A stretch of 63,987 bases of DNA, counting the filler, from Fonticula-like sp. SCN 57-25 (lineage: Eukaryota), in assembly GCA_001724245.1 (NCBI GenBank). It is 6 parts of 6 records of this genome, joined end to end, with 100 filler letters (N's around TTAATTAATTAA, not from the genome) between each part and the next. Parts side by side here need not be neighbours in the genome. Positions count along the whole stretch, not along the records: positions 42,430 to 54,705 come from MEDX01000237.1; 5 more parts are not named here. The stretch is one strand, 5' to 3'. Positions 5,069 to 56,346 of the stretch are shown here, in pieces. Both the position numbers and the translations under genes were made by a program. Under the pieces are notes generated by a model. That model had not been told where the DNA came from. It saw nothing but the letters and a program-made list of their open reading frames with translations, and ran no database searches. Position 1 is the stretch's first letter, and the number at the start of each line of letters is the position of its first letter.

Positions 5069-6250
5069 ATGTCGATTCCCGTTGAGAGGCGTGCTGAGCT
5101 TGTTGAGACGGCTGCGCGCATTGTTGCGCCCGGCAAGGGTATCCTTGCTGCCGACGAGAGGTGCGTGAGAGCCTGCGTCACCACGTGCATTGACGATTTT
5201 CCGTGTGTTTTCCAGCACTGGCACCATTGGCAAGCGCTTCCAGGGCATCAACGTCGAGAACACTGAGGAGAACCGCCGCGCCTACCGCGAGCTTCTCTTC
5301 ACCGCCGGCGCTGGTGCGTCACCCCTTCCTCGATGTTCTCCCTCGTGTTAACTAGCGGTGCAGAGATGAGCTCTTACCTCGGTGGTGTGATCATGTACGA
5401 GGAGACTCTTTTCCAGAAGACCAAGGACGGCGTTGCCTTCCCCGAGGTCCTCAACAAGCTCGGCATTGTCCCCGGCATCAAGATCGATACCGGCCTTGTT
5501 GAGCTCCCCGGCACCAACGGCGAGACGACCACCCAGGGTCTTGATGGCCTTGATGCCCGCTGCAAGAAGTACTACGCCGCCGGCGCCCGCTTCACCAAGT
5601 GGCGCTGCGCCCTCAAGATCGGCCCCAACCAGCCGTCCGAGTACGCCATCGAGGCCAACGCCGACACGCTCGCCCGCCAGGCCGTCATCTCGCAGGCCAA
5701 CGGCCTCGTGCCGATCGTCGAGCCCGAGATCCTCATGGACGGCGACCACGACCTGAGCAAGGCCGTCGCCGTCGCCGAGCACGTTCTCGCCGTGACCTAC
5801 CGCCGCCTGCACCTGCACGGCGTGTACCTTGAGGGCTCGCTCCTCAAGCCCAACATGGTCTGCCCCGGCTCGGACTGCAAGACCAAGTACACCCCGTACG
5901 AGATTGCGCGCGCCACCGTGACCGCCTTCCAGCGCACCGTGCCCGCCGCCGTCGCCGGCATCACCTTCCTTTCGGGTGGCCAGAGCGAGGAGGAGGCCAC
6001 CGTCCACCTCAACGCCATCAACCAGGTCGAGGGCCGCAAGCCGTGGCCGCTCACCTTCTCCTACGGCCGCGCCCTCCAGTCGACCGTCCTCAAGACGTGG
6101 CTCGGCAAGGAGGAGAACGTCAAGGCCGCCCAGGAGGCGCTCCTCAAGCGCGCCAAGGCCAACTCGCAGGCCGCCGAGGGCAAGTACGCCGGCGACGCCG
6201 CCGACGAGTCCGCCAAGCAGAGCCTCTACGTCCGCAACTACACCTATTAA
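5069..6250 (+). CDS. Fructose-bisphosphate aldolase, class I (animal/plant-type), 3 exons
   Basis: [55 protein letters not shown] (Schiff-base Lys); [13 protein letters not shown]-terminal Tyr; strong codon bias. Confidence 0.97.
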
Positions 6251-13103: not shown

Positions 13104-16100
13104 ATGGGCGACGAGGAGCAGAGCGGGGTATACGAAGGGGGCAAAAGCACCTTTGTCGCCCGCTTTCTGAGTACCAAGCATTCGTGGAAGGGCAAGTACA
13201 AGCGCATCTTCTCCATCGCTGACAACTGGTACGACCCCGCAAGGAGAGCTTTGCACATGTGGGAGAGGGAGAAGTGATTGTTGAAAGGGCTATAGATGGG
13301 CAAGGGAATGGTTATGGACGTGTGTTTCATCCGCCTGTTGCCTGTTTCTCTCTATTGCATTGTTATTTTTGCTTTACTGACGCGCGGGACCCAGTATTGT
13401 CACGGTGAACCCGCTAACGTGGGAGGTCACGAACCGGTGGGCGTTTCACGATGAATTCGTTGACATCGTTCCGACGCCCAAGTCTACCGAGTTTGTACTG
13501 ACGATAAGAAAGAACAAGACGACCACCCGGACGTCCACCGAGACGTTCTCGTCGATGCAGAGGGCGCATCTTCTGACCTATTTGCAGACGTACCGCAACT
13601 CGTTTGTGTTGCAGCCCAAGCCCTTTGAGCAGTTTTCTGCTCGCAAGCTGTCGTGGAGCGGGCAGGCAAAGTCGTCCACTCTGATTGTGACCGCAGCGGG
13701 CATAGAGCAGGTGGGCGCAGGCGTTCGCCGCACCTCGCTGTGCACATACTTTTACAGGGACATCGAAAGCATCGTAGTGATGAGCGATGTTCCCGGCGGT
13801 TTTGCCATCAAATGTACGATCGATCATTTTGCGCAAGCCCGTGGAGTGGGTTTTGTTGAATGAGTAATGTTACTGACGCCGTTGTTGTAGATGGCGGATT
13901 TGGTCGGCAGCACATCTTTGCTGTTGAGAACCGCGATGACTTTTTCCGCAAGGTGCAGGGGATGGCGCTTGCGATGATTGGCATCGAGCTGCGAGTAGCC
14001 GTAGACACGCCGCTGTCTCGCATGGACACGGAGCTCGGCCGTCTCGGCGTCTTTGGCGACGATGAGTCTATCACGTCACTCGCCGAATTCAAGTACGGTG
14101 ATCAGCGGGGTTGGTTAACGGTGACTGATGTAGCTTTACTATAGGGTGTACAAGGAATCAACGCGGTTCGAGGATCCGGTTTCGCGCATTCTGTGCTTGA
14201 CAGAGAAATGCATCGTGGAGCGCGATCCGTCCTCTTATGGTATGTCTTGCGCATGATTTTGAACGATTTTCTAAGTGGGGGGGGGTAGCCATTGTGACGA
14301 TTCGTCCTTTGAGCCATGTGTTTGCGCTCATTCGCTATGACGAGGATCCTCAGAAGTTTGCCATCGAGCACAAGGTACGATTATTAGGCAGCATATAAAT
14401 GTGGATGTGAAAGTGGCTGCGTCCCTTTATTGTAGGTCCCGTTTGCTTCTCGCTCACTCGTGTGCAGTCTGGCCATGTCCGCCGCTACTTGACCAATGAG
14501 CGCGAGTCTTTGCTTGCGTCTCTGCTGGATGGCGTACGCGGGAGCGGTAATCGCGACGTTTGCGTCAAGATGTCGGAGACAGTTGTGTTTAACCGTGTCG
14601 GCTCGTGGCACCAGTCTGTTGATGAGGAGGTGCAACTTGTGTACTTGCGCGCGCTGGCCCACTTTGACCCGAGCGTGGGCATCACGTTTGACCAGCTGGT
14701 GGGCCGCTTCAACGTGAACGTGGACTATAGCGGTCTGCATCTGCGCGAGATCGTAGATAGCAAGGAGACCGAGCTCATCCACGCGGCGCTCAACAACATT
14801 CTCACTCTCGGCGCGGCATCCTTTGAGGCCTCCCCGGCCGCCGCCATCGAGCAGTTTGAGTGCCTTCGTAGGCTTCTCGCTAGCAAGGTCGGCTTTGAGG
14901 CCTTCACCTCACTTGAAGGTCTCAGGGGCGGCCTTGGGAAGCGCATTATGTCGGCCATTAGAAAGACCTCGGACGGAGTCAAGTATGCCGCCGTCGACAT
15001 GATGGGAGCATTGCTCAAGCCCCAGCACGACTTTTACGACCCCGCACAGGAGCAGCTCAACAAGAAGAGTCTCTTGTCGTCAAAGGCCTTTGTGCAGACG
15101 TACGTTGTTATATTTACACCTCGCTATCTTGCTCATCTGGAATTAGATTGGCAACCTTGCTGGGTACCCACGCGCAGCTTGGAACAGGAGCGCTTGTGGC
15201 GTCCTCGTTGATTGACTTTTTCACCTTTGCGCTCTGCGAGCCGTACAGCCAGACCACCGACGCTGAGCAGTTTGACATGGTCCTTGTATGTAGTTGCCCC
15301 TTTTGTACGGCATTGGCTATTTTTCTCACCTTTGTATTAGGGCCTTGTTGCGGACCTCGGTCGCAGTCTTTTCAAGCTTTTCCAGCACCCTTCGATTGCC
15401 ATTGTCAAGGGCGCTGGCCTGCTGATGCGCGCGATGATCGAAGAGGCATCCCCCGAGCAGCTTGCGCGCCTCCAGGCGCTCGCCCTCGCCGAGGGCGCCG
15501 TACTTAAGCATCTGCAGACGGCTTTGTTTACAGCCTCGACGGACGCGCGTCTGCTCGCGAGTCGAGAGCTGAGCCGTCAGCTGTTAAGCCTTTGGACCGG
15601 GACTGACAACCCGCAAGCGTTGGAGCTTTTGCTGCGCGCCATCCCTCCGGGTCTTGTGGTGTTCCTCGACAGCAAGGAAGTACCTCCCGAGGATGAATTC
15701 GTCGACCTGGACGCGCGGGACAAGCGCGCAGGTGAGCGGCCCAAGCGACTTACGCAAGTTGAGGTGCGTAGTTAAAAAGAAAGGTGGAATAGTATATATA
15801 GGGCAGGGTCCGGTCCTTTCCATCATCGCGGTTCTGTCGTATTGCGTTCTTTGCTCCCTTTCTCTCGCTTTGGGTTTTGCTGACATTGTTGCCTCCTATT
15901 AGAAATGGATTTCGCATTGGCACAATCGCGATTGGCTGCGTACCACGCCCAAGCCGAAGGGCCCCCAGCGCACTGTCGTGATTCGCCAGCGGCGCACTCG
16001 CGAGCGGAACGAGCGCAACTGGCCCATGTTCTATTATCAATTTAGGCAGGACCACTCGCGTGTTGACCTCATTTGGAACCACAAGACACGTGAAGAACTG

Positions 16101-19100
16101 CGGGAGGCGCTCGAAGCAGAGCTTCGCGCGTTCAACATTGATCGCGACCTTGGCGGTTTGACGTTGGCCGTGTCCTGGAACCATGTGGAGTTTGAAGTCA
16201 AGTACGAGTCGCTGTCTGAGGAACTCAAGATCGGTGGCAACTATGTCAGACTTCTTTTGGAGCAAGGTATGTGCATTTGTGTGAATGGAAGCAATTCGTT
16301 TTGGTTGAAGTCAGGGTTTGATACCGTTTGTGGGATTCTTGCGTTGTCGTCGTGTGCTTTGTATCTGACCAGCGTCTGCGTAGGTCTGATGGGTCATGAT
16401 CTCCGTGAGCCTTCCGAGTTCTTCTACGACCTGTATCATCGCTTTCTGCTGAGCACCAGCAGCAAGATGCGCAACTTGTGCTTGCAGGCGATGGCCATTG
16501 TTTACCAGCACTACTATGCTGTAATTGGACCTTTTGCTGATACGAGCTTCCTCGTCCACATGCTCAACACGACACTGTCAAAGTTGGAGCGCGACCATCT
16601 CATCCAGTTTATTGACAAGGTATGATATTACACGGTGATGTGGAGGGGAGATGAAATGGTGATGGGGAGAGGTCAAGTGTGATTTTTGTTGGTTGCGGTT
16701 GGTTTGAGGACCCTGACTTATTTTGGATTTCCCTCCTAGCTGTTGTATCACCGCGAAAACATCAAGCACTTTTTGGACGCGTCGGGTGTGCGCATCTTTA
16801 TTGATTTGCTCACGCTGTGCCACCTGCACACGGACCGCGCCCAAACTCCGCTGCAGTCAAACATGCTGGAAGCCGGAGATATTAAGCGCGAGAGCGAGAA
16901 GGAGTGGTATTATAGCGACTCGTCGAATCAGCAGCAGGGACCGTTCAGCATTGAAGAGTTCAAGCGTCTCTACCAGGAGGAAGTGGTGCGATAGCACTTT
17001 TGTTCTGACTGGTTTGCGTTTTTACTCACTGTTCGATAGATCCGCGGCGAGACCAAGTGCTGGGCGCAGGGAATGGACGGCTGGCGCAAGCTGTCGACCA
17101 TTGCTCAGCTCAAGTGGAGCCTGATGGATACTGTGACGTCGCTTATGAACGAGACCCAGATGGCCACCCTCATCTTGGATGCCTTCATTCGTATCTGCGA
17201 GCTGTTCCCTTCGCGCGACTTTGAGAATGCGGTTATCAGGCCGCTTCCGCGGATCAAGCGCATGCTTAGCGACAACCTGTGCCTTCCTCACCTCGTCAAT
17301 GTGTTCCTCACGTTTGACCCGGCGCTCGTGGAGAAGACAGCGGTGCTCCTCACAAACATCATGCAGGATAACCCGAACGTTCCGAAGGTATGTTGCCATT
17401 CAAGGGGCGGGGATGCAGGTCGTGGGAGATAGGTTCACAATTATTCGAACGGATTATCTGCCGGTTTTGTGATATACCCTCTGCTTCGTCCCTCCTTTTT
17501 TTTATGTGTTTTTTTGCATTCTCTGACCTCTTTTGGTTAGCTCTTCCTTACTGGCTGCTTCATGTTTGCGCTCATGTACACGGGCTCGAACCTTCTCCCG
17601 CTTGCTCGCTTCCTCGAGGCGACGCACGACAAGCAGGCATTCCGTGCCGAGGAAGATGCCCCCGCGGCGCACCCGATGGCTCAGAGGAGTGTGCTCTCCG
17701 CTTTGCTGCCGACGGCTATGGTTTGCTTCTTGCAAAACCACGGTTGCGAAAAGTTTAGCTCGGTCTTCTTGGGCGAGTTTGACACGCCAGAGGCCATCTG
17801 GAGTCATGAGATGCGCCGTTACATGATTGAAAAGATTGCCGTTCACATCGGTGACTTTTCTACCAGGTACGATTTAGTGGAATGGCGGATCTGGGTGGGT
17901 GTTTGAAGGCTGGATGTGCTTTTGGGGTTCCTAGTGGGCTTGCATGGCGGCGGCTCTTGTGAATTTTCTTTTTCCCATTTTGTGTGTTTCTTTGCCCCTT
18001 CTAATGTTCTTGCGCAGGCTTTTGTCGAACACGCATGCGCTGTATCCCTACCATCCGATCCCTACGCTGCTCTATCCGCAACTTCAAAGCGAGCTGTTCT
18101 GCAACATTTATTTCCTCCGCCACTTGTGCGATTCCGCGCGATTCCCGTCGTGGCCTATCAGCAAGCCGGTGGAGCTGCTCAAGGACGTGCTGGATGAATG
18201 GAAGCGCGAAGTGGAGAAGAAGCCCTCGGCCATGAGTGCAGACAAGGCGTACGAGGCTCTTGGTCTTGGTGGTGACGGCGCGGCCGCTATTACGGAAAAT
18301 GACATTCGTAAGGCGTACTTCAAAATGGCCGCCAAGTACCACCCGGATAAGAACCCGGACGGTCGCGAGATGTTTGAGCTGTACGTTTTCCACCGCGAGG
18401 GAGGGGATCACCGTCTCCAATATTAACTGCTGTTGCTTTCTTTAGTGTGAACAAGGCCTATGAATTCCTCGTGTCGACAAGCAAGACCCGTTCCGAAGGT
18501 CCCGATCCGGCGCGCATCGTCCTCCTTCTGCGCACGCAGTCGATTCTGTTCTCGCGCTATGGCAAGATCTTGGCGCCCTACAAGTATGCTGGTTACCCCA
18601 TGCTCATTAAGACCATCCAGCTAGAGACTGCCGACGAGAAGCTCTTCTCGCGCGAAACTCCGCTGCTCCCTGCCGCTAGCGAGCTTGCGTACCATACTGT
18701 TTACGTGTCTGCGCTGAACGCTGAGGAGCTTCGTCGTGAGAACGGCATTGATGTTGTCGCGAGCGCTCTCTCTCGGTGCATGGACGTCGTCGGTGTCAAG
18801 ACGAAGAATGAGGACACTGCGGCTGTTGTCTCTATGTACATTGTCAAGCTGCTTGGCGTCGCTGCTGGGTTTGACGCATGCTGCGAAAAGATTGTGGAGC
18901 AGCCAGAGATTGTCAGGAACGTTGCCCGCTGCCTCTACTACAAGGATATTTCAATGCTTGCGTTGGCTGCCTTGGAGTGTGCTGTCGGATTCGGTCGCTC
19001 CGCTGCACTTCAGAATCTGATGGCTGATTTCGGCGCAATCTGGCATCTCGTCGGTTATCTGTTCCGCTACGACTACACGCTGGCCGAAGGTGGCATTGAG

Positions 19101-21338
19101 GCTGCCGTCGAGTCCAACAAGCAAGAGACGGCCAATCACAGTGCCGTCATGGCATTCAGGGCGCTTGGACGCATGGGAGGCTACCTCACCGGCACTATTC
19201 AACTCAAGCGCGATCTTGCGGAGAGCGTTGCAGTGTCTGAACCAGACACTGAACTCACTGTGGAGGAGGCGAGCTCTCTTGCGGGACAGAACGAGCTTGA
19301 TCTTACGTCGCCTGTGAACGACCGCGTGCGTCGGGCGATGGAGGGCCTTTTGACGTGGCATCTCGCTCGTCAGCTGTCGAGCGTGAGCGCGTCGAGTGCG
19401 CTGAAGATGATCAACAGCAATGCCGAGAACCCCTATCTCATCTGGAACAATGGTATCCGCGCCGATCTTCTTGAGTATGTTGAGCGGCAGGGCGGTACCG
19501 TTGTGCGTATTGGTGAACAGGACGAAGACCTTGGTGCCTCTTTCCTCGCAGCCGATCTCAAGGGAGAGTACAAGGTCGGCAATGTCTACCTTCGCATTTA
19601 CATTGACCAGCCTTCGTTCGTTCTCGAGGACACGGACGGCTTTGTCAACGCGCTGGTAGTGCGTCTTCGTGCGCTTGGAGAGGTGCTGTACCGCCCCGCA
19701 CCGCCTCAGCCGCCGGAGGACGCACCTGCCGACTCGGAGCAAGCTCAAGCAGTCGCCAAGTACGCCGAGGACCGCACTGCTGCATGCCGCGAGTCGTCGA
19801 TGTGCTTGCACGCCCTCGCGACTGTTCTCTCGAATCACCCCGAGTCAGCGACGCTTTTGGTTGCAAAGTTCAAGTTGCTCTTTTATTTCTTGCGCGTGGA
19901 CGACGACGAGGAGGTGCAGGTTCGCGCGCTACAGGCAATTGGGAATGCGCTGGGCAACCGCGATTGCGTCACTGCGATCGGTGAAGCAGGCGTGCTGCAG
20001 AATGTGCTTTTGCTTGTGGCCACTCTGCCTGTGGCTCATCCCGAGATTCTCGCTGCGCTGCAGGGCTTGTTCTCGAGCCCAAAGATTGTTGCGGAGGGTC
20101 TCGCCAAGGGCGCCCTCATCTACATGCTGCAGCTCGTGTGCAACTCCAAGAACCCCGCTGTTCGCATCGGTGCCGCGTTGGTCATTACCAAGATGGCCGC
20201 CGATAAGCTCCACGGCCCGCGCGTCGTCCTCGCTCTTGCAAAGTACCTTCCGCCCATCTTTTTGGATGCGATGCGCGAAAGTCCCGAGGCAGCCGTGCAC
20301 ATGTTTGAAGGAACACACGAGAATCCCGAGCTCATCTGGGAGGACGAAACGCGGCAGCGCGTTCAGCAGACCATCAAGAAGCTGTGTCGGACGTTCTACG
20401 AGGAGCAGTCGGCCAATCCTATTGCGTGCCGGTGGAGCGTTCCCATGGACATGGTGCCGATTTACCAGTCTGCGTCGCAGGAATTCTGTGTGGGTGGAAT
20501 CTTCCTTCGTCTCTTCCTCAAGCAGCCCAACTGGGGCCTGCGCAATCCGAAGGATTTCCTGACCGCACTTTATGACAAGATGTTTGAGGAGGCGAACGCG
20601 AACGTGATGAATGCGAATCCCGACACTGCAGCTGTGGAAGTGCCTGAGGAGCCTATCCGCAGTGTTGCAGAGGCTATTGTCCTGCTCGTCAAGGTGCAGA
20701 CAGTGCTTGCGTCGTACTTGTTCTCCCTTGGTCTGGTGCAGCGGACTTTTTCGCTTATGCGGAGCCCGCAAAAGAGCGTGCTCGTTGCAGCTGCGCTCGT
20801 GTCGCACGAGCTTGCAAGCCACCAAGTCTGCGTCGAAGCCATGACCGCGTTCCCCAGTATCGAGCTCATGATGTCGCTCATGCGAGGTGCACCGTCTCAG
20901 CTCCACCTTGCAGCCGATACGCTGAGGCTCATGTTTGAGTCTACGCTCGCGCCAGAGAAGGGTAGTCTCGTCAAGAACGCGCTGGACGCGCAGTTGATCC
21001 CCTTCGTGATGGGGATTCTCGACAGTGCGCTCGAGATTGATAACTCGTCCGCTGTCAAGGCGCAGCTCGTGAAGGCAATGAAGGCGATGACGAGAGATGT
21101 TACGTACGGAGAGGCGGCTAGACAAGAGCTCGATGCATCACCCGTGTGGGCGTCGTTCCGTGATCAGCGACATGACCTGTTCCTGACCACTGATACTGTC
21201 AGGGGTCTGCTTACTGGCCCTACCGGGCCGTCGACAAAGGGGTACCTGACTAGCAGCACTACGCCGTCTGCGAGCGTTGCGAGGGTGACCATGGGAGGAG
21301 AGTCGAGGAGTGTGTTTAAGCCTCCGGAGCTGGACTAA
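13104..21338 (+). CDS. DNAJC13: RME-8 / DNAJC13 endosomal J-domain protein, multi-exon
   Basis: N-terminal [18 protein letters not shown] repeats ([21 protein letters not shown]); GYF_2 ([18 protein letters not shown]); J domain [34 protein letters not shown]. Confidence 0.96.
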
Positions 21339-22888: not shown

Positions 22889-24997
22889 CTATTTTGTGGC
22901 GGCGCTGCCCTCGGAGGAAGCCTCCTTGTCACCGCCCGCCGCCTTTTCACTCTTCACCTCTACAGCCACCAGCTTGCGAGGCTCCTGCGCGGTGCTCTTG
23001 GCGGCAGCCGGGGCTTCCGTGCTGGATTCCCGCTTGGAGCCGCCCTTTGCCTGCGGCGTCGTCTCCTTGGTCACCTTGCTGTCGGGCTTTTTCCGCTCCT
23101 CGCTCGTGTCGTCGTCGTCCGAGGCCTTGCGCTTATTCGAGGCGCTCTTGTCGAGGGCGCCGAGCATCGGAAGCGGGAACTCGGGCACGGGCGTCTCGGG
23201 CTCGGGGCGCGGCGGCGCGTCGCCGGCCTCGCGCAGCAGCGCAGACGCGGCGGGGAGCACCGTCGTGGTGTCGGCCGGCTTGTCGGCGTCCGCGGCGGCG
23301 CCTTCGTCCGTCGTGGGTGCCGTCGGCGACCCCTCGCGCTTCTACACTCACGCCGGTTAGAACAAGGTAGACAAAAGAAGCGGATCTGTGCGCACCGGCG
23401 GCTCGGTGGTGCCGTCGCCGATGCTCGGGAGCGCCGTTGTCGACGGGAGCTGTAGTCGCGCGTCAGATATGGGCGACCAGCAAGAGTGCAATGAAACGTA
23501 CCGGTGCGGTCGCGTTTGCAGCCGCAGGCGCCGCGCCAGCAGGGGCGGCGGCGTCGGCTCCAGCGGCGGTTCCGGCGGGGAGCGTCGGCCTGCGGGCGCG
23601 TTAGGGTCAATGCAAGGCGCGCAAAAGGCATACCTGAAGCCGCTGGTGATCTGCTGCTTGAGGGCGGCGAGGCGGTGCTTGATCTGGACGTTTGTGTGGT
23701 CGAGGTCGGCCGCCCGCTGGTACGCGTCGAGCGCGTCGTTCGTCTGGCTGCACGCCTCGTACAGCGTGCCGAGGTCGAACCACACCTCGGACATGTACGG
23801 GTTCAGGCGGATGGCGCGGCTGTATGCGTCCAGGGCGTCGCGGTACTGGTTGATCTGAAAGTAGAGGACGCCGATGGAGCACCAAAAGGTCGGATTCCTG
23901 TTGTCGCGGTACACGGCCTGCTGGTACGCGTCGTACGCCTTGGTGTACATCTGCTGCGCCATGTAGACGCGGCCGAGAAGATACCACGACTGCGTGTCCG
24001 TCGGGTCTGTAGAGAGGAAACAATCAGCAAACCAGACCAAGAAAAAGAGAAAAGCGCACCGATATCAATGGAGCGCGTCAAAAGCTGAGCGGCGGTCTCG
24101 TTGTTGGCGAACGGCGTCGGCTGGTGGTAGAGCCAGCCGAGCTGCTGGAGGGCCTTGGGGTGGTTCACGTTCTCCGCCAGCGTGCGCTCGTACGCCTCGC
24201 GCGCCCGGACAAGCTGCAAAAACAAAACAAAGAGTCAGTGGCAGCAGTGGCGGGTATACTGCAACGCACCTCCTTTTGCTGCTCGTAGACGTGGCCGATT
24301 TGAAAGTGAATGTCGGCGCTCGTGAGCGGGTGCGGCGGGTTCGACACGATAAAGTTGAAGCATTCGAGGCTGTGCGAAAACTTGCGCTCCTGCTTGTATA
24401 TAATGCCCAACCGAAAGTAAATCTCGTTGGCCTTTTCAAACTTGGGGTCCATCTGGATGACGGCCGTGAAGGCCTCCTCCGCGTGGTCGAGCGAGCCGTA
24501 GCGATCGTACAGGATGCCAATGCCGTACCAGAGCTTCGGATCCTTCGGGTTCGGCAAGTGATACAGCGCCTGCTGGTAGGCGGCGTACGCCTTGTGCAAA
24601 TCGTCCAGCATGAGGTAGCAATGGCCGAGCGCGCCCCAGATCTCTCCGTTGGCATTTTCTATATTGAGAATCCGCTGAAAGTACTCAACGGCCTAGCGCG
24701 ATTCGTAAGCAACCGCAAAAAAAGGCGCAAAGCAAAGACCGGTACCTTGGGAAACTGCTCCCGAATACGGCAAAGCGACGCTACCTGCGTGAGGGCCTTG
24801 ACGCTGTACGGATTGTGGCGAAGCGCGTTCTCGTACGCCTCGAGAGCCCGGTCGTGCTCTCCCATGAGCTCGCTTAGTGAGCCTGCGACGGAATTAGCTG
24901 GCGCCATTACCGCGCGCAAAACGTACCCAGCTGCAGCCACGTGTGCTCATTCATAGCAGTGACTTTTTGAATGATCGTTGACCCTCCTTGCTGCGCC

Positions 24998-25041
<44 letters not shown>

Positions 25042-25161
25042 TTGCTGCTGCTGCTGCTGGTGCATCACCTGCTGCATCTGCTGCTGCTGCTGTTGCTGTT
25101 GAAGCATCCCCGGCATGGGCATCATTCCCACTAGCCCGGCGGGCATAGGTAGCCCCGACAT
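22889..25161 (-). CDS. CYC8: General transcriptional corepressor Cyc8/Ssn6 (polyQ, TPR array, low-complexity tail), multi-exon
   Basis: NEHTWLQ; AYQQALYHLPNPKDPKLWYGIGILYDRYGS; EIYFRLGIIYKQ; AYQQAVYRD.RNPTFWCSIGVLYFQINQYRDALDAYSRAIRLNPY. Confidence 0.95.
25003..25100 (-). repeat. CAG/CAA trinucleotide tracts encoding N-terminal polyQ of Cyc8
   Basis: (ctg/ttg)n on the + strand. Confidence 0.9.
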
Positions 25162-32169: not shown

Positions 32170-33269
32170 TCCGCCTTCCACCCCGTCAGCATACTAAACT
32201 CCTTGCCCACCAGCGCGAGCTCCCCCGTGCGCCTCCACACGCACGTTGGCGTCCCCATGTACGCGAGCAGCTTTGAGTACTCGACAATGAGCCTCTGAAA
32301 GCACTTTTCCATAAAAATGAGGTCATTGACCGTGAGGTTTTTAATGATGGACAGCAGCGACGGCCTGTAGCTGACGAGCGCGCGGCACACGCGCAGCGTG
32401 TCTTCCCGCGTGAACCGCCCGGTGAGGTAGTCGAGCAGGTGGTGGTGGCCGGGCGTGTAGTCGAACGGGTCGGCCACGCGGTTGTACACGACGTCGGGGC
32501 CGACGGGGCGCTTGTCCTCAAAGGAGAGGACGACGTTGCCGAGGCCGCCCATGGCGTCGCTCACGGGCGGGATCATGCCGCCGACCTGCGCGACATCGAG
32601 CAGGCGCGCATCGACATCGACCATGTCGGGGATGTCGGTCAGCATGGAGAACTCGCGGTCGAGCGCGGCGGACTCGAATTGCGCGCCGGGGTGGTAGTCG
32701 GAGGAGGGGAGCGGGAAGGGATCGTCAGAGACGGCATCGTCAACGAGCTGAAGGGAGCGGTAGGGGGACTGCATGTTGAGCAGGGCGGATGCAGAGGGGG
32801 AGAGGGAGGAATCATCGGCTTTGGGGGAAGAAACCTGCGTGGTGAGGCGAGCGGGGCCGCCGGGGCCAGCAGCAGATGACGATGACGATGACGATGACTG
32901 GAGCGCCACGTTGTCAATGTACTTGACGACGCCCTTGCGAACGCCATCGCGGCACGAGAGGGCGAGGCCGCGCTTCACGCAGCGCTCGCAGGGGCGGCCA
33001 GTGTCGCAGGGGAGATGAGAGCGCTGGCAGTAGATGCACGCGCGGCTCGTTTTTTTCTTCTTTTGGGCAAGCTTGCGTGGCTGGCCATCGCCCGCGGTGG
33101 GTGACGCGGTGGGGGCGGCGCCCTTGCCCTTCCGGCCCGCGGAAACGACAGAATCGGGCGACACGTGCGAGCGAGAGGAGGAGACGGTCGACATGGGCGC
33201 GAGGCCCGTCGAGGGGCCCGCGACGGGGAGATCGCGCTGCAGATGCGACAGGTACCCGCGCTGCTGCAT
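32170..33269 (-). CDS. Zn(II)2Cys6 transcription factor with PAS-like C-terminus (Ert1/AcuK/Rds2 gluconeogenesis-activator family), 3' truncated
   Basis: RACIYCQRSHLPCDTGRPCERCVKRGLALSCRDGVRK; PFDYTPG; DLIFMEKCFQR..EY; GTPTCVWRRTGE..LVGKEFSMLTGW. Confidence 0.9.
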
Positions 33270-34051
33270 GGCGACCGTTGTGGATCAAAAAGGGGGAAGG
33301 GAAGGGAAAGGGGCTCAAATTGAGCTCGCCTCGGCTAGAGTCCTACTTTAAAAGAAAGACACCGCCTCTATCGCTGCTGCACTAGGCTGCTCGCAGGCGG
33401 AGACGCAGATCCCACGACCAAAAAAGAAGCGCCTTGCAACGATCGGTGGGCCGGCGACGTTCTGGCGATAATGAACGGGCGCGCTCCTTATATGAACAGT
33501 GCTGCAGCAATGCTGCGCACATGACTGTCGCATTCCTGCCCACATGTTTGTGAAAATCATGACCATGAGCTGGAAGATCACCATTGTCAGAGCAGATTTT
33601 GCAGCTGGCGGCTTTGTGTTTGGGGCCTAATCAGTCGTGGGAGGCGCTGTGGGCGGTCCGCGAGAAAAAGGAAGAGAAAAGGGGAATTTGCGCGTTGCTG
33701 CAGAGGACCGACGTGCCGAGGACTGCTGTAGGGGTGGTGTGCTGGAACCATCGAGCGCGGCCTTTTTTCCGGCGTGTTTGCGGCGCAGTCAACTTGCCCG
33801 GCTTTGTTGTTTCGCCTGGGTCAAAAAAGGCTCCCGCGGGATCCCGGGTTTGCAAGACCGCCGTCATCTTCTTTGCCGCATCCTTAATTTAACTCGCCTA
33901 CCTTCTTTTTCTGATACTGTCTCTCTCGGGACGACTGCGCGTGTGGCGCAAACCGGCTGGATTTGCTCCGCCCCTCTTGTTTGCCCTTTTTTCCTTGCCT
34001 TTTACGACGAGCGTCGCGCGTGCGTGACCGCGACGCTTGGCACCCACAATC

Positions 34052-42429: not shown

Positions 42430-42785
42430 AACCTTTGTGGCAATGTCCTACCAGCTCGTGGTCAAAACCATAACCGAGGTGGACCAGACAAAGGACAGGC
42501 TGCCCTCTCAGTCTGTTCGCAAGTACCTACATGCCCATATGAATTCGTTCAATCTCGATGCTGCGCTGGTGGAGGACTACATTAATATGTACGAGCTGGC
42601 GCGCTTCGGCCCCGACCAGCTGACCGAGAGCGACTACGATGAATTCACCACTGTCTTTTACAAGTTGTTGGAAAGGTATGTCTGGCATTGTTTCTTGTAC
42701 CTTTGCGCTGACGCACACTGTCCCTCGCTGTAGCATAAAGTCGGCTCGGCCGAATGATGACTATCTTACGCCCCCGAGCACTTGA
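42430..42785 (+). CDS. 3' end of a C1orf43/NICE-3 (Dlt1)-like protein
   Basis: SVRKYL...YINMYELARFGPDQLTESDY resembles the YE.ARY/FG...EY motif; short GT-AG intron before the stop. Confidence 0.5.
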
Positions 42786-43151
42786 TTCGGACTGTCCATT
42801 TTGAGCTCTTTGCGGATGTACATACGCTTGTTTGGCAAGTCCTTCTTTTCTGTGTGTTTTGTGTATATTTCTTTGCTCATTTTTGTGTCGCCAAGGACCC
42901 CTGTGCCTGCGCAGAATGTCAATTCTACTTTATTTTTGTGTATATACTATCTGTTATTGTGTAAAAAAAAAATTTTGCTGTTCATAGTTGCATAGAATAC
43001 ACGAAAGCCCATATGGTCAGCAGAATATCCCTAGGATGACAATTTACTATCACTGTATTATGAGCGATACAAAAGCAGAACTGAGGTCGGTTCAAAATAA
43101 TTTCGCGCCATTTGATTGGTCGATTTTTTCCATAAGAGCTCAGAATCGGGT

Positions 43152-45306
43152 ATGTCGGGTGCAAGCCCCCAGCGCCGTCGGCACGACGCGTTTCGACAAG
43201 AGCGCGACAACGTGCAGCAAAATGAGGCGACACCTTTGAATTCAACTGTGACCTTGGAGCAGATGAGCATGAAGAATTCCGAGCTGCGGTTGCAGCTTTC
43301 GTCATGCACGGAGTGGATGCTCGCTTTAGATCGACAGACTGCTTTGCAAAAGGAAGTTGCGGGGAGGCTTCGATCGTTTGCTACGTCCCTTATACCGCTG
43401 CTGCCACAAGATGCTCAAGAACAGACTTTGGTCGAGCTGAATAGAATAGCAAGCCGAATCGACCGAGCGCCACAGGCTTCAGTTTTGGTATGGACCGCGT
43501 GGACCTTGCGTGTTGTCGCCATAGTCTAACCATCTTCCGCAAGCCCTCTGACTTACAGCTGCGGCGCCATAGTCTAACCATCTTCCGCAAGCCCTCTGAC
43601 TTACAGCTGCGGCCTGCCTCGCTTAATTCTGTGAACGGATCTATACTGTTGCCCGCGATGATGCAGTCGGAGCGGCTTCATTCTACTTTGGCGCCGATCG
43701 TTTTCCCGTCTTCACCTGTTTCAACGCTGCCGCCCTTGGTGTCGCCACGCGCTCTGGGCCTCGCTAGCGACCCTGGGCCTGCCCAACCGCCAGAAGACTT
43801 GCTCGCTAGAGGTCAGCGCGAGCAGGCTTCTTTAATAGCGAATATACCCACCGACGTGGCTCTCCACCATTCGGTGATCACTGGCGGGACGAAGGCAGCA
43901 GCGGAGACGTGGAATCCTTCTCATCGTCCACCGCTTGCCAGGCCGATTGCCATAAAACCCATGCCACGGGCTGGCGTTGTGCCTCAGCCTCCCTCTGACT
44001 CTATGATGTTGCCTCACTCGAACGATTTACCCGTGAATGGCATGAAGCGCCCGCGGTCTAGCAGCGAGCCACAGCCACCCCTCCACGTGGCAGACGACTC
44101 GAGCAACGAGCACAAGACAATGCGGAGGCAGCGCAAGAACTATGTGTGGGTTTCTCAGTCGTTTAAGGAGCCGACAAAGCCAAAGTCTCCCGTGTACGCT
44201 GTTGGCTCGCGACCGATGCACATGATTAGCTAACGCGCGCTTTGGACGCCCTCAGGCCGCCCCTGTGGCAACGGTCAGTTTTATTTCATGGGACTGTGGT
44301 CTCTGCAATTGCGATGGACGATTCGCACGGTGTTGTTTACACTGGCGGCAAGGGTAACATCCGCAAATGGGACATTATGCGAAAGGAACCACAGCTGCTC
44401 GCAGAGCTCGCCGGCCTCGTACGTCTCTGTCAGATTGTCGTGTGACCAATCTGTTGAACTGTGGTCTGTCCAGCTGGACGGCAAAGTCGTTCGCGTATGC
44501 CAAATAACTCGCGATGGAAGCAAGCTTTTCGTCGCCGGCGAATGCAGCCAGATTGTAGTCGTCGACCTCACCCCTTCACTGCCGAGGCTAGCTGGTACCG
44601 TTGCGGTTTCTGTGCTTGCGATCTATTCTTTGGCCATTAGCCGGGACGGCCGCCACTGCTTTGCCGGCGCCGACAACGGGTCAATCCTGCATATAGACGT
44701 AAATGAAATGAAGGTGCTGAAAACGCTGCAGGCTCACGCTGCAGGTGTCACCTGTATCAACGTTATCTCGAAGGACGGCTCGAGCATCGTATCTGGTACG
44801 GGCGCATATCCACTCTTATTGACACGTAATCTGCTTTTGTTGAGTAGCAATTAACACACTGCTGGAATGTAGGCGGGCTAGATTCGATGCTGCGCGTGTG
44901 GTGCGTTGAGACGGGCAAGCAAACGCTCGAAATATCGCTTGCGGAGCCGGTGTATGCCCTTGCGCCCTTGCGTTGTGCTGAGAACAAAAAGTGCATTTTG
45001 GCGGGTATGGTGGACGGCCAGATGGCGCTTGTCAACCTGGAGACGATGGAGCAAAAGACGATCCCCGGTGTGGACAAGGGTGTGCTATCGATTCGCGTGT
45101 CAAAGCGGGGCGCCTGGTTTGCCGCCATCAGCTTGGATAGCGTTCTCACTGTGTGGGATTCGACCACGCTTGAGAAGCGGACGCAGTTTAGTGACGTCGA
45201 AGGGGTATTGTGTTTTGATATTTCGACTGATGGCAAGAGGGTCATGCTGGGGACGAATAACCACGTGGCGACGGTGTACGATATGTCCGATATTATCAAA
45301 GAATGA
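43152..45306 (+). CDS. Groucho/TLE-like corepressor (N-terminal Q/TLE_N helix plus C-terminal WD40), multi-exon
   Basis: QKEVAGRLRSFATSLIPLLPQDAQEQ (cf. TLE QTEIAKRLN.ICAQVIPFLSQEHQQQ); LFHGTVVSAIAM..VYTGGKGNIRKWDI (cf. LNHGEVVCAV..VYTGGKGCVKIWDI); IYSLAISRDG..CF; GGLDSMLRVW; ATVY. Confidence 0.8.
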
Positions 45307-47501: not shown

Positions 47502-49534
47502 CTAACACCCGCTGAGAACAAATTCTGAATCCTGGGAAGACAACATTTTGGTCTGTTGGATCGAAACTCCAGCGGGCGGCGGCGAATCAACCGCGCGCAT
47601 GCAAAATGACACCACATCATGCTGCGTTGGTATTACCGTGGCAACCAGCTGGAACGAAATAGCGTCGCCAAGGAGCTTTAGCCGCTGGTCCGGCTGGCAG
47701 CGAAGGAAGGCAGCGGCCGACAATCCCAGCAATTGAGTGGTTGGGCGCTGGCCGGTACCGATGAGCACAGTGCTAAAGCCGTCGTCCAGACAGATGGCCA
47801 GATTGAACAGGCACGCTGACGCCGCGTCGGGCGACGATGCCCCGCATACTGAGCAAATATTCTGTTTATTCAAAAGAGCACTGATCCCGCACGGCGAGTG
47901 AATCAGGCGCACCGTGTCGCCGCCATCGCCCACCGGCGCGCCGTCGGCTAGCGTCCATTGCGAGATCGATCCCGCGACAACAGCCGCGTGACCAATCTGG
48001 CGGTTCAGCGCTCGCAGCGGCAACGCCTCGTAGGTAAAGGGAGAGTTGAGTACACCGGTAAGCAGATCAAGCACTGTCACGCGCCCGCCCGACAGCCTGC
48101 TGCAAACCGCGCGCATGCTGCCATCCGCGTCTTGGCCGCACACAATCCCCTCAATGATACACACAGATCCGACCGCAATAGCAGCCACGGAGACCTGGTC
48201 AAAGCCCACTAGGCGCAAGGCAAAAGGGGATTGGACACCTGCCTGGCTGCTTGTATCTGAAAGAAAAAGAGTCTCGTTGTCGCGGTCAACTGATACGACC
48301 CACGCGAGCAGGCAGAGGTTCGCGTGGTTGAGCTGCCGGAGCTCGGCGAGATAGACGCGGTTGGGAATCGCATGACAGTCAATAGTGTCCTGATTGTCGC
48401 GAGCAACGGCTTGAGAAATAACGCCCACCGGCTCCTCGTGTACGTCCTAGATAGAGTTAGAATGGCTGAAAGGCACAAGGGACCGCCGTACTGGCTGTTG
48501 TGGCGCGTTGATTGACATGAAGAGGACGGTCGCAGAGCCGTATTCCAGCAAAAGCATATCTTTCCCCGAAGATGTCGAGACGTACGGCCGATAGATGTGA
48601 AGCACGTCGCCGCGCGCAATGAGAGACGAAAATAATGTCTGGTCGTCCCAGAGCTGCAAGATGAACCGCTCGAACCGGGCGGCCAGCGACGCGTGGCCCG
48701 CGACGGGGCGCAGGTAAACAGCAACGCGCTTGCGCCTTCCGATTTGATGCACAACTGAAACATCCACGACATTTACTGATAGACATACGAGCCCGCGCTG
48801 GTCGGCATCAAACTGCTCTGGGACACACGGCGAGCCAAAATGATGCTTTAAGAACTGGCCTCCCGTCGTGCTGAAGCAATCAATGCCAAGAATAACAAGG
48901 TCCGTTGGAAGAATTCGAGGCACACCAACGCGCGCCATGTCCACTAACCGACACCCAGTCATTCGAATTATGATATCTACAGCAACGATCAGACAGATGC
49001 CAAGGTAGAATAAAGCGCACCTGTCACGAATAAATGAACAAATTCGCCTGGGTGACCAAGAAAGTAAAACTTTTCGTGGAGATACATTTGCACACGCGCG
49101 GTTGAGCGATCTTGGACGTCCTCGGTGACATCTCGCAGAACGGCGATTAAAGTGGTGAAAGCTTGCGCTATGGTTTGTACGCTCTCTAGCCGGACGTCAA
49201 AGGCACAGGAGAAATCAAGCATGGTGTGCCCCTGCAAGAAAGACAGCCTTTGCCGCCTACGAACCGCATCCTGCGCCGAAAGCCCGACTTGCGAGTCTGT
49301 GTTCATATCGACAGTGCGAAGCATTGCAGGCGGGGCGCTCGCCTCCTCCTTGCGATCTAGCAAAGATCGCTGCACTCCGGCCATCGCTAGCGGCCATGTT
49401 ACACCGGTCGGGTACTCGGTAAGAATAGCCGCCAGTGCACTGGCCACGCTCGCCCATGGCACCACCTTGAGCTGAGGGGTGGTCGCCAGCTGGGTGCACA
49501 GTCTAGACAAGACGTCGTCGATCTGCTCGAGCAT
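47502..49534 (-). CDS. Multi-OB-fold protein resembling the S. pombe Cdc24 / plant OB-fold family, with C-terminal Zn-binding cysteines
   Basis: MYLHEKFY; TGCRL; RILPTD; LWDDQ; IYRPYV; LEYGSAT; RD.QDTID; H..C...CSVC; I.LDDG. Assignment from recalled motifs only. Confidence 0.55.
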
Positions 49535-49620
49535 GCTTGCAGTTGCCTCGGCCGCAGATTCGCAGATTTGTGTTTGCCGCGCTTTTTTGCAGCAGTTTGC
49601 AGTTTGCGGGCGGCATCAAG

Positions 49621-53730: not shown

Positions 53731-54705
53731 TTACATGGCCTTGCTGTTTGACGGCGGGAAGAGCATTGCCTCATACTTTGCGCGCTGCTTCTTTTGCATC
53801 GACTGGAAGACGCCGACGTTGAAAACAGCCTGCATTTGCTTTGGCGTGTACTCCTGCAACCCAACCTGCGTTAGTGATCGATGGCGCTCGTCAAAGTCAG
53901 CGCACCTTGCTTGTGAGAATCCAGTGCTCGAGCTCGTTCTCTGACAAGTAGTATGCTTTGATGTACTTGTCCAAAAAGTTAAAGTGCGGGATGGGCCGTA
54001 ATGTCGTGAGCTTTTCGAGCTCGCTCATAAACACCTTTGCGTCGAGCTGCATCTGGCCGCGGCCTCCGGGCGAGCACTGCCAAACGCTGCGTTGGCCCCA
54101 GAAGCAAAGGCGCGTGTGTGCGTACCTTTTTGGCGCGAGAATAACCTTCGACGATGGTCTCCATCGCGTTGATGATGGAATGGTACCATAGGATGTTTTG
54201 CACCTCGGCGGGGACGATCTTGAGCCTACAAAACTGTGAGCGAAACGCATAGAGTCGAAAGCGAAAGCGTACGAAGGCTCCTTTTGCATCCGATCCCTGA
54301 AATTCTCGTACTCTTTCAAGAGCACTCGTAAGCGCGAGTCAAGGAAAAACATTAAAATTGCAACAATATCAGTCACAACGCATGCCACAACCCACGCCAC
54401 AATGCACGCCACAATGAAATAACATAATAAGTGTATAGAGCGGATATCGACGTAGGGCGAAGTGGACGTTCCGAGCATCGCAATGTCCCAGTTGGTCGAC
54501 GCGATTAGATTGAGCGCGGGCTCCGTGTTGATGAACCGCTTGGCGAGCATCCTATACATGAGCGTGCGGATCTCCTTGATCATGTCCACCGTCGAGTTGT
54601 AAAAGTGCAGGACGGTCGGCGCGTCCGAGGCCGGAACCGAGTGCTGTGCAAACATTAGTTCTTGAGAGGCGTGTGGCGCGGCCGTACCTCGAATCGCTCC
54701 TTGAC
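53731..54705 (-). CDS. VPS50: VPS50/syndetin (EARP subunit), 3' part
   Basis: VEGYSRAKKCSPGGRGQMQLD..LEKLT.LRPIP..DKYIKAYYLSENELEHWI..EYT.KQ matches the syndetin C-terminal domain. Confidence 0.85.
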
Positions 54706-55449: not shown

Positions 55450-56346
55450 ATGTCGCCCCATACCATGTCTGTAAAGTCGCTGTTGTGCGATCCGGCGCCT
55501 TCGACCTCGCCCGAGCCGAGCCCCACCGGTGCAACCTCCGCAACCGCGAACGGCGCGACCGAGATGAGCCGCCCGTACAAGTGCGTCATGGACGGCTGCG
55601 ACAAGAGCTTTTACCGCCACGAGCACCTGAGCCGCCACATTCGGACTCACACTGGCGAGAAGCCGCACCAGTGCACGGTTGCCGGCTGCCACAAGCGCTT
55701 TTCGCGCTCGGACGAGCTGCGCCGCCACTCGCGCATCCACAGCGTGTCGCGCCAGACGCTCACGCGCCCCGACGATCTCTGCTGGTCGTCCGTCACGGCC
55801 GCCTCCTTTGATGCCCGCACCGTGCCGATCGCGCGCCAGCCCTCTTCGGGCATCAAGGCCGCCTCGTCGCGCCGCCGCCATCTGTGCTCGGTCGACGGCT
55901 GCGGCAAGGCCTTTTCGCGCACTGGCCACCTGATCCGCCACCAGCGCACGCACACTGGCGAGAAGCCGTACCAGTGCCTCGAGCCCGGCTGCGGTAAGGA
56001 CTTTGGCCGCAGCGACACGCTCCGCGAGCAACTCCGCTCGCACGGCATCGTCGCCGGCACCACCAAGGCTTCCAACACCTACGCCGACATGGCCGACGAT
56101 GACGAAGACACCGACGACGACTATTACACCTCGTCGTCGGGCGGCAGCAGCGCCAACGTCTCTCCCAAGATGATGGCCGCGCCCAGCCCGTACATCTCGG
56201 GCGCCCAGCTGTTCAGCAGCGGCGTCCTCGGTCTGCCCCTGCGCTCCATCGTCAAGCCGGAGCCGGTGCGCCCCATGTCCATCCTCGACCAGTTCTCGAG
56301 CATCGCACTTTCGTTCGCCGCGGCGGACGGCGCAATTAGCATTTAG
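55450..56346 (+). CDS. C2H2 transcription factor with a CreA/Mig1-like finger pair plus a second finger pair, intronless
   Basis: [48 protein letters not shown] (CreA/Mig1 signature); second pair [23 protein letters not shown]. Confidence 0.88.

Follow-up and report, generated by a model that had tools for sequence, protein, structure and literature searches.

The proteins closest to the gene described here are the Groucho/TLE and Tup1 co-repressors. Human TLE1 and the animal Grouchos (PDB 1gxr, 2ce8 and 2ce9; Q domain 4om2 and 4om3) consist of Q helices, a Pro/Ser-rich linker and a C-terminal WD40 propeller, and Tup1, Tup11, Tup12 and the Tup proteins of Fonticula alba and Nuclearia follow the same coiled coil plus WD40 plan and co-occur with Cyc8. 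Copley 2016 (PMC4943189) reports Groucho only from Holozoa (animals and Teretosporea) and two excavates (Trimastix and Naegleria). Tup is recorded there from fungi, from Fonticula and Nuclearia, and from a wide range of further eukaryotes, both proteins being present in Naegleria. The paper suggests that the eukaryotic ancestor had both, and leaves it undecided if the outlying Grouchos reflect ancient descent, transfer or contamination. The Grouchos of Ichthyosporea, Corallochytrium, Trimastix and Naegleria are, like the present protein, clade members from unicellular organisms, but no Groucho row in that alignment comes from Holomycota, to which the present host probably belongs. The window analysed (63,987 nucleotides (nt), filler included) consists of six contigs of Fonticula-like sp. 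SCN 57-25 (GCA_001724245.1; 9.5 Mb, 749 contigs) joined by N spacers, and the fifth of these (MEDX01000237.1) contains a Groucho-like gene. Judged from its sequence, the product very probably belongs to the Groucho/TLE clade and not to Tup1. The explanation which we favour, and hold with about even confidence, is that it came down to its host by vertical descent within this clade, evolves fast, and acts as a co-repressor in a probable Fonticula-like opisthokont.

The gene is predicted on the + strand from the ATG at 43152 to the stop at 45306, with five exons and four introns, all GT-AG. Splicing as predicted from the sequence gives a product of 613 amino acids (aa) with no internal stop. The coordinates given in the preliminary description of this DNA were thus correct, and every sequence motif cited there was found in the translated product. 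The product begins with a Q-type helix pair and ends in a WD40 propeller, the two being joined by a Pro/Ser-rich linker; these parts are distributed over the gene as follows.

43152..43487, + strand: exon 1 (aa 1-112), Q-domain-like, with a predicted long helix at aa 35-83 and a predicted short helix at aa 86-104
43488..43606, + strand: intron 1, containing a 48-nt tandem duplication of its own 3' end at about 43517-43564
43607..44193, + strand: exon 2 (aa 113-308), a 196-aa Pro/Ser-rich linker with 16 % P and 12 % S
44256..44418, + strand: exon 3, first blade of the WD40 propeller, bearing TGGKG, a motif of TLE type; K340 equals TLE1 K504
44474..44795, + strand: exon 4, WD40 blades; R369 equals TLE1 R534, E385 equals E550 and Y413 equals Y578
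44873..45306, + strand: exon 5, last WD40 blades; L472 equals TLE1 L636, L541 equals L702 and L582 equals L743

The 48-nt repeat supplies intron 1 with a second 3' acceptor. Because contigs from three of the four sequencing runs compared (X1, X3 and X5) skip these 48 nt, the repeat is most likely an assembly artefact and the true intron about 71 nt long, and the 613-aa model was therefore kept. The linker gave no Pfam match; it has one basic cluster at aa 259 and another at aa 285, which may resemble nuclear localization signals.

The WD40 and Q exons were searched one by one against 177,635 PDB sequences. TLE1 was the top match of exon 3 (E 2e-8) and of exon 4 (E 6e-15), and TLE6 and TLE1 were the top matches of exon 5 (E 1e-12 to 2e-11). 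The matches of the three exons are colinear with TLE, and no Tup1 chain was among those listed. A tally made by eye over 40 diagnostic columns of the Copley 2016 alignment (72 rows) gave 27 Groucho-type columns, 7 Tup-type columns and 6 of neither type. An ESM Atlas structure search likewise returned TLE/groucho clusters in rows 1 and 5-8 of 10. The view that the WD40 blades are TLE-like rather than Tup1-like is borne out by the colinear matches and the column counts. In a side result of the exon 4 search, one piece of a gene with CDC24 OB1 and OB3 domains (window 47505-49615, - strand) appeared as a weak chance match.

The N-terminal helix had also been called TLE-like. This stands in so far as TLE_N was listed for exon 1 in Pfam and Tup_N was not (E <= 1), but the TLE_N match (E 0.037, 14.8 bits) lies far under the cut-off of 32 bits, and compared with TLE1 the protein is much more diverged. 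The TLE1 Q domain was found at ranks 2-3 of 3 in the PDB search, with weak E-values of 0.13-0.16, and its chains took ranks 1-3 and 5 of 54 in Foldseek, again weakly (E 0.46-1.9). No TLE_N-type match was among the 50 rows of a further listing for exon 1, and the Atlas returned no family. In the predicted model of exon 1 a long helix is followed by a short one, the plan which Copley 2016 gives for TLE. The low TLE_N score, together with the seven Tup-type columns and the Tup-like pocket pair described below, could be explained by an aberrant Tup1 or by an unrelated WD40 protein with a chance likeness to TLE. However, four separate exons indicate TLE in the correct order, the Tup-type motifs (VCC, GSKD, and GH ahead of the third, fifth and seventh blades) are wanting, and the TLE-only TGGKG and PR motifs are present; we consider this explanation very improbable.

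The preliminary description emphasized that R, E, Y and L are retained on the top face of the propeller. They are kept, as are the equivalents of all of TLE1 K504, R534, E550, Y578, L636, L702 and L743, but the equivalents of R534, E550, Y578 and L636 also occur in Tup1 rows, and these residues therefore do not discriminate between the families. Mutation of R534 abolishes WRPW/EH1 recognition and L743 likewise has a reported role, according to two preprints; these residues are R369 and L582 here. The more telling point, absent from the earlier description, is that the family-diagnostic pocket pair reads as Tup-like. Copley 2016 gives this pair as TLE1 F661/E677 versus Tup1 Y580/L596, and reasons that an aromatic residue opening the eh1/WRPW motif clashes with the Tup state. 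The residues found at this pair and at one further site are:

44953..44955, + strand: Y497, at TLE1 F661/Tup1 Y580, the Tup-type state
45010..45012, + strand: V516, at TLE1 E677/Tup1 L596, aliphatic and Tup-like
45133..45135, + strand: L557, at TLE1 K718; canonical Grouchos and Tup rows retain this lysine, TLE6 does not

The protein thus has Y497/V516 instead of the F661/E677 of canonical Groucho; relative to the Tup1 pair the Y is matched, and the second site is V rather than L, the residue in 32 of the 33 Tup rows. Tyrosine at site 661 occurs in 0 of 33 Groucho rows and in all 33 Tup rows covering the site, and an aliphatic V or L at 677 likewise in 0 of 33 Groucho rows. The F/E pair is also altered in the Grouchos of Trimastix (F/Y), Naegleria (L/E) and Corallochytrium (F/S). 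In TLE1 numbering the substitutions are C488S, Y532V, F661Y, E677V and K718L. Since the pair is Y497/V516 and not F/E, and K718 is lost, binding of canonical WRPW/eh1 motifs by the protein is doubtful. The seven Tup-type columns adjoin top-face positions, and as five of the seven are also WDR5-like, convergence on Tup is inseparable from relaxation to a generic WD40 state.

A further explanation is a relaxed or repurposed relic, a Groucho descendant which, like vertebrate TLE6, no longer reads motifs and acts as a scaffold. TLE6 is also without F661, E677 and K718, exon 5 scores highest on it, and no relative came up in the best 150 listed out of 1.84 billion representatives, nor in a metagenome scan. 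(The metagenomes best matching the contig DNA were labelled bioreactor, wastewater, aquatic and 'fungus'.) Variation in exon 1 points in the same direction: in run X1 this exon forms a bubble of two contigs differing at 46 of 314 nt, whose depths (9.6 and 6.8) sum to approximately that of the single downstream contig (~15.5), and the differences shown cover 14 codons, of which 8 have an altered residue and 6 are silent. The differences fit fast evolution of the Q region. Other runs have related alleles of the upstream and exon 1 region, and the downstream contig (3.9 kb) is nearly monomorphic, with one other letter and one gap. The allelic bubbles extend over the upstream region together with exon 1 (window 42430-43495), a second one in run X1 having 32 differences in 315 nt. 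Against a relic, however, stand the retention of all seven top-face residues named above, the Q-type helices and the basic linker clusters, and human TLE6 is without TLE_N according to Copley 2016. We regard a relic as unlikely, and the likeness to TLE6 is probably a parallel relaxation.

The second component pointed out in the preliminary description was Cyc8, and a CYC8/SSN6 gene is present on the third contig of the window. The name presumably applies, as the product has the family features we associate with Cyc8, a poly-Q stretch followed by an array of tetratricopeptide repeats (TPRs).

23634..25161, - strand: CYC8/SSN6 exons 1-5, encoding poly-Q and then the TPR array; the 3' exons lie beyond the model
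24926-24883, 24745-24693, 24269-24214 and 24059-24007, - strand: CYC8 introns, the next donor being at 23633

Because the window is made of six joined contigs, CYC8 is not linked to the Groucho-like gene. The intron donors are GTACGC, GTACGT, GTACGG and GTATGG in the Groucho-like gene and GTACGT, GTACCG, GTGCGT and GTGCGC in CYC8, and this splice dialect fits three of the four Groucho-like introns as well as EF-1alpha. The tetranucleotide correlation (r) between the two contigs is 0.66, within the range of the window contigs (0.61-0.80; no foreign control), and their GC contents are unequal (0.545 versus 0.642). From these sequence features the two genes very likely belong to the same organism, and with a canonical CYC8 in the same assembly, the shared dialect and the r of 0.66, the claimed co-occurrence of a Groucho-type protein with Cyc8 is upheld. 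No JmjC domain was found in the Pfam scan of the frames near CYC8.

The host was placed with EF-1alpha (locus L018 on contig C63, locus positions 616-1887, + strand), which has an insertion common to the animal and fungal rows and absent from the plant rows. In a tree of 32 rows, chosen from 120 matches listed, it falls inside an environmental clade (93/94) and outside both the sampled Holozoa (95/82) and the group of Fungi with aphelids (83/59); a quick tree of 112 rows, 35 of them in the environmental clade, agrees. These trees agree with a host among the opisthokonts that is probably Fonticula-like and likely to be a holomycotan. A few other genes of the host were recorded. A Zn2Cys6 transcription factor with an ERT1/acuK-type PAS domain, a fungal-type regulator, is encoded at window 32172-33284 (- strand). 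A frame on contig C678 (locus L008, locus positions 300-1334, - strand) resembles homoisocitrate/isopropylmalate dehydrogenase and could belong to a fungal-type lysine pathway. RME-8/DNAJC13 (window 13381-21335, + strand), syndetin (53900-54703, - strand) and a class I aldolase (5267-6247, + strand), which to our knowledge are wanting in most yeasts and moulds, fit a gene-rich early-branching lineage.

Two observations weigh against a native gene in a holomycotan host. The approximately unbiased (AU) test did not reject EF-1alpha with Holozoa (p 0.13), and the GC content at third codon positions (GC3) of the Groucho-like gene, 0.63, is the lowest among 11 coding stretches measured. Both would suit an ordinary Teretosporea-type Groucho present by way of a holozoan host, a mis-binned contig or lateral entry. 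The neighbouring genes on the same contig are nevertheless similar (GC3 0.66-0.77), and the splice dialect and tetranucleotide range are those of the host contigs; a holozoan source therefore has only a small chance in our estimate, and the gene appears to be native to the host.

Tup1 was not found in the assembly, either with the Tup_N profile or with three DNA patterns fitting the Fonticula and Nuclearia Tup rows. The Tup pattern also matched tandem short-exon WD40 genes on contigs C58, C93, C151, C336, C645, C695 and C706 (loci L104-L113). The absence of Tup1 is weak evidence, because RPS30 gave no match in the assembly either, the profile search missed the Q domain of the Groucho-like gene itself, and the assembly is probably incomplete. 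A true loss of Tup1 from the host is possible, and an unassembled Tup1 somewhat more likely. The suggestion that this lineage keeps both systems is for its part not sustained, Tup1 not having been found in this probably incomplete assembly.

If Tup1 has been lost, the Groucho-clade protein could have replaced it as the partner of Cyc8. Its Q helices would dock on TPR1-3, and its pocket would have become Tup-like by convergence so as to read Tup-type motifs such as MSVKSLL. The intact and canonical Cyc8, the missing Tup1 and the tyrosine at site 661 suit this explanation, and precedent exists in animals. The N-terminal part of TLE1 binds TPR1-3 of UTY/UTX (KDM6C/A) according to PMC11137763 and PMC10047809, Copley 2016 states orthology between the TPRs of Cyc8 and the TLE1-binding TPRs of KDM6A/UTY, and the title of Grbavec 1999, with the summaries in two papers, states that TLEs bind yeast Ssn6. 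Compared with UTX/UTY, the present Cyc8 is of the stand-alone fungal type with poly-Q, and the pairing is known here from the genes alone. On the other hand, the absence of Tup1 counts for little in this assembly, Tup is present in both sampled nucleariids, and the divergence of the protein seems to exceed that of Cyc8 by far, which would be odd for an obligate partner. Replacement is accordingly a tentative proposal and rather unlikely. Pairing of Cyc8 with the Groucho-like protein, by analogy with animals, is a reasonable hypothesis, if still an unlikely one. To speak of an ancestral hybrid complex overreaches, as Groucho and Tup are already inferred for the eukaryotic ancestor and UTX/UTY TPRs bind TLE1.

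A possible ligand of the changed pocket was found in the product of a C2H2 zinc-finger gene of EGR/WT1/KLF type (55450-56343, + strand), on a contig separate from those of the Groucho-like gene and CYC8.

55465..55485, + strand: eh1-like MSVKSLL, starting with M instead of F, close to the N-terminal end of the C2H2 protein; a third contig is thus involved

By its sequence this C2H2 protein is a candidate ligand or client of the co-repressor. The match is a single observation made post hoc. The M-first motif, in contrast to the F-first motifs carried by Amoebidium C2H2 factors, would be of the type expected under replacement, but the 80 loci read in the wider assembly scans included no second transcription factor with such a motif. 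The F/Y-type eh1 pattern gave 336 matches compared with 309 in the control, and none of the 37 loci examined was tied to a transcription-factor domain. WRPW was found 0 times in the window open reading frames, only three of which were checked. We think it improbable that all elements hold together, i.e. that Groucho was retained and Tup1 lost in a lineage diverging at the root of the fungal side, that Groucho is paired there with a fungal-type Cyc8, and that its pocket independently acquired the Tup state and reads Met-first eh1-like motifs.

Under the favoured explanation, a retained Groucho/TLE-clade protein, the product would act as a transcriptional co-repressor with no DNA-binding domain of its own. 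The N-terminal helices may oligomerise, as in TLE1, and the linker may bring the protein to the nucleus, where the top face of the propeller would read short amphipathic motifs of DNA-binding repressors. With Y/V at F661/E677 and L at K718, the pocket probably refuses the first aromatic residue of WRPW and F-type eh1 motifs and may prefer aliphatic-first motifs, as Copley 2016 argued for Tup. Cyc8 is encoded in the same genome, and the proposal leaves its main partner unassigned.

Groucho together with Cyc8-type TPRs is already known from animal UTX/UTY, and since animals keep such TPRs, the co-occurrence alone matters little. What appears to be new is the presence, in a probable holomycotan, of a Groucho whose pocket is Tup-like. 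In the literature searched (Rozella, nucleariid, Holomycota and Fonticula beyond Copley 2016; most subscription journals lie outside its coverage) no report of a Groucho on the fungal side was found. The Y/V pocket offers a natural variant for asking which residues choose between WRPW/F-type eh1 and Tup-type motifs. A swap of Groucho for Tup1 with reading of Met-first motifs, if true, would be a natural experiment indicating that the co-repressors are interchangeable, with the F/E versus Y/aliphatic pair setting the motif choice. If a nucleariid-like genome does carry a native Groucho gene with introns, Groucho and Tup would both have been present in the last common ancestor of the opisthokonts, one having later disappeared from the animals and the other from the fungi.
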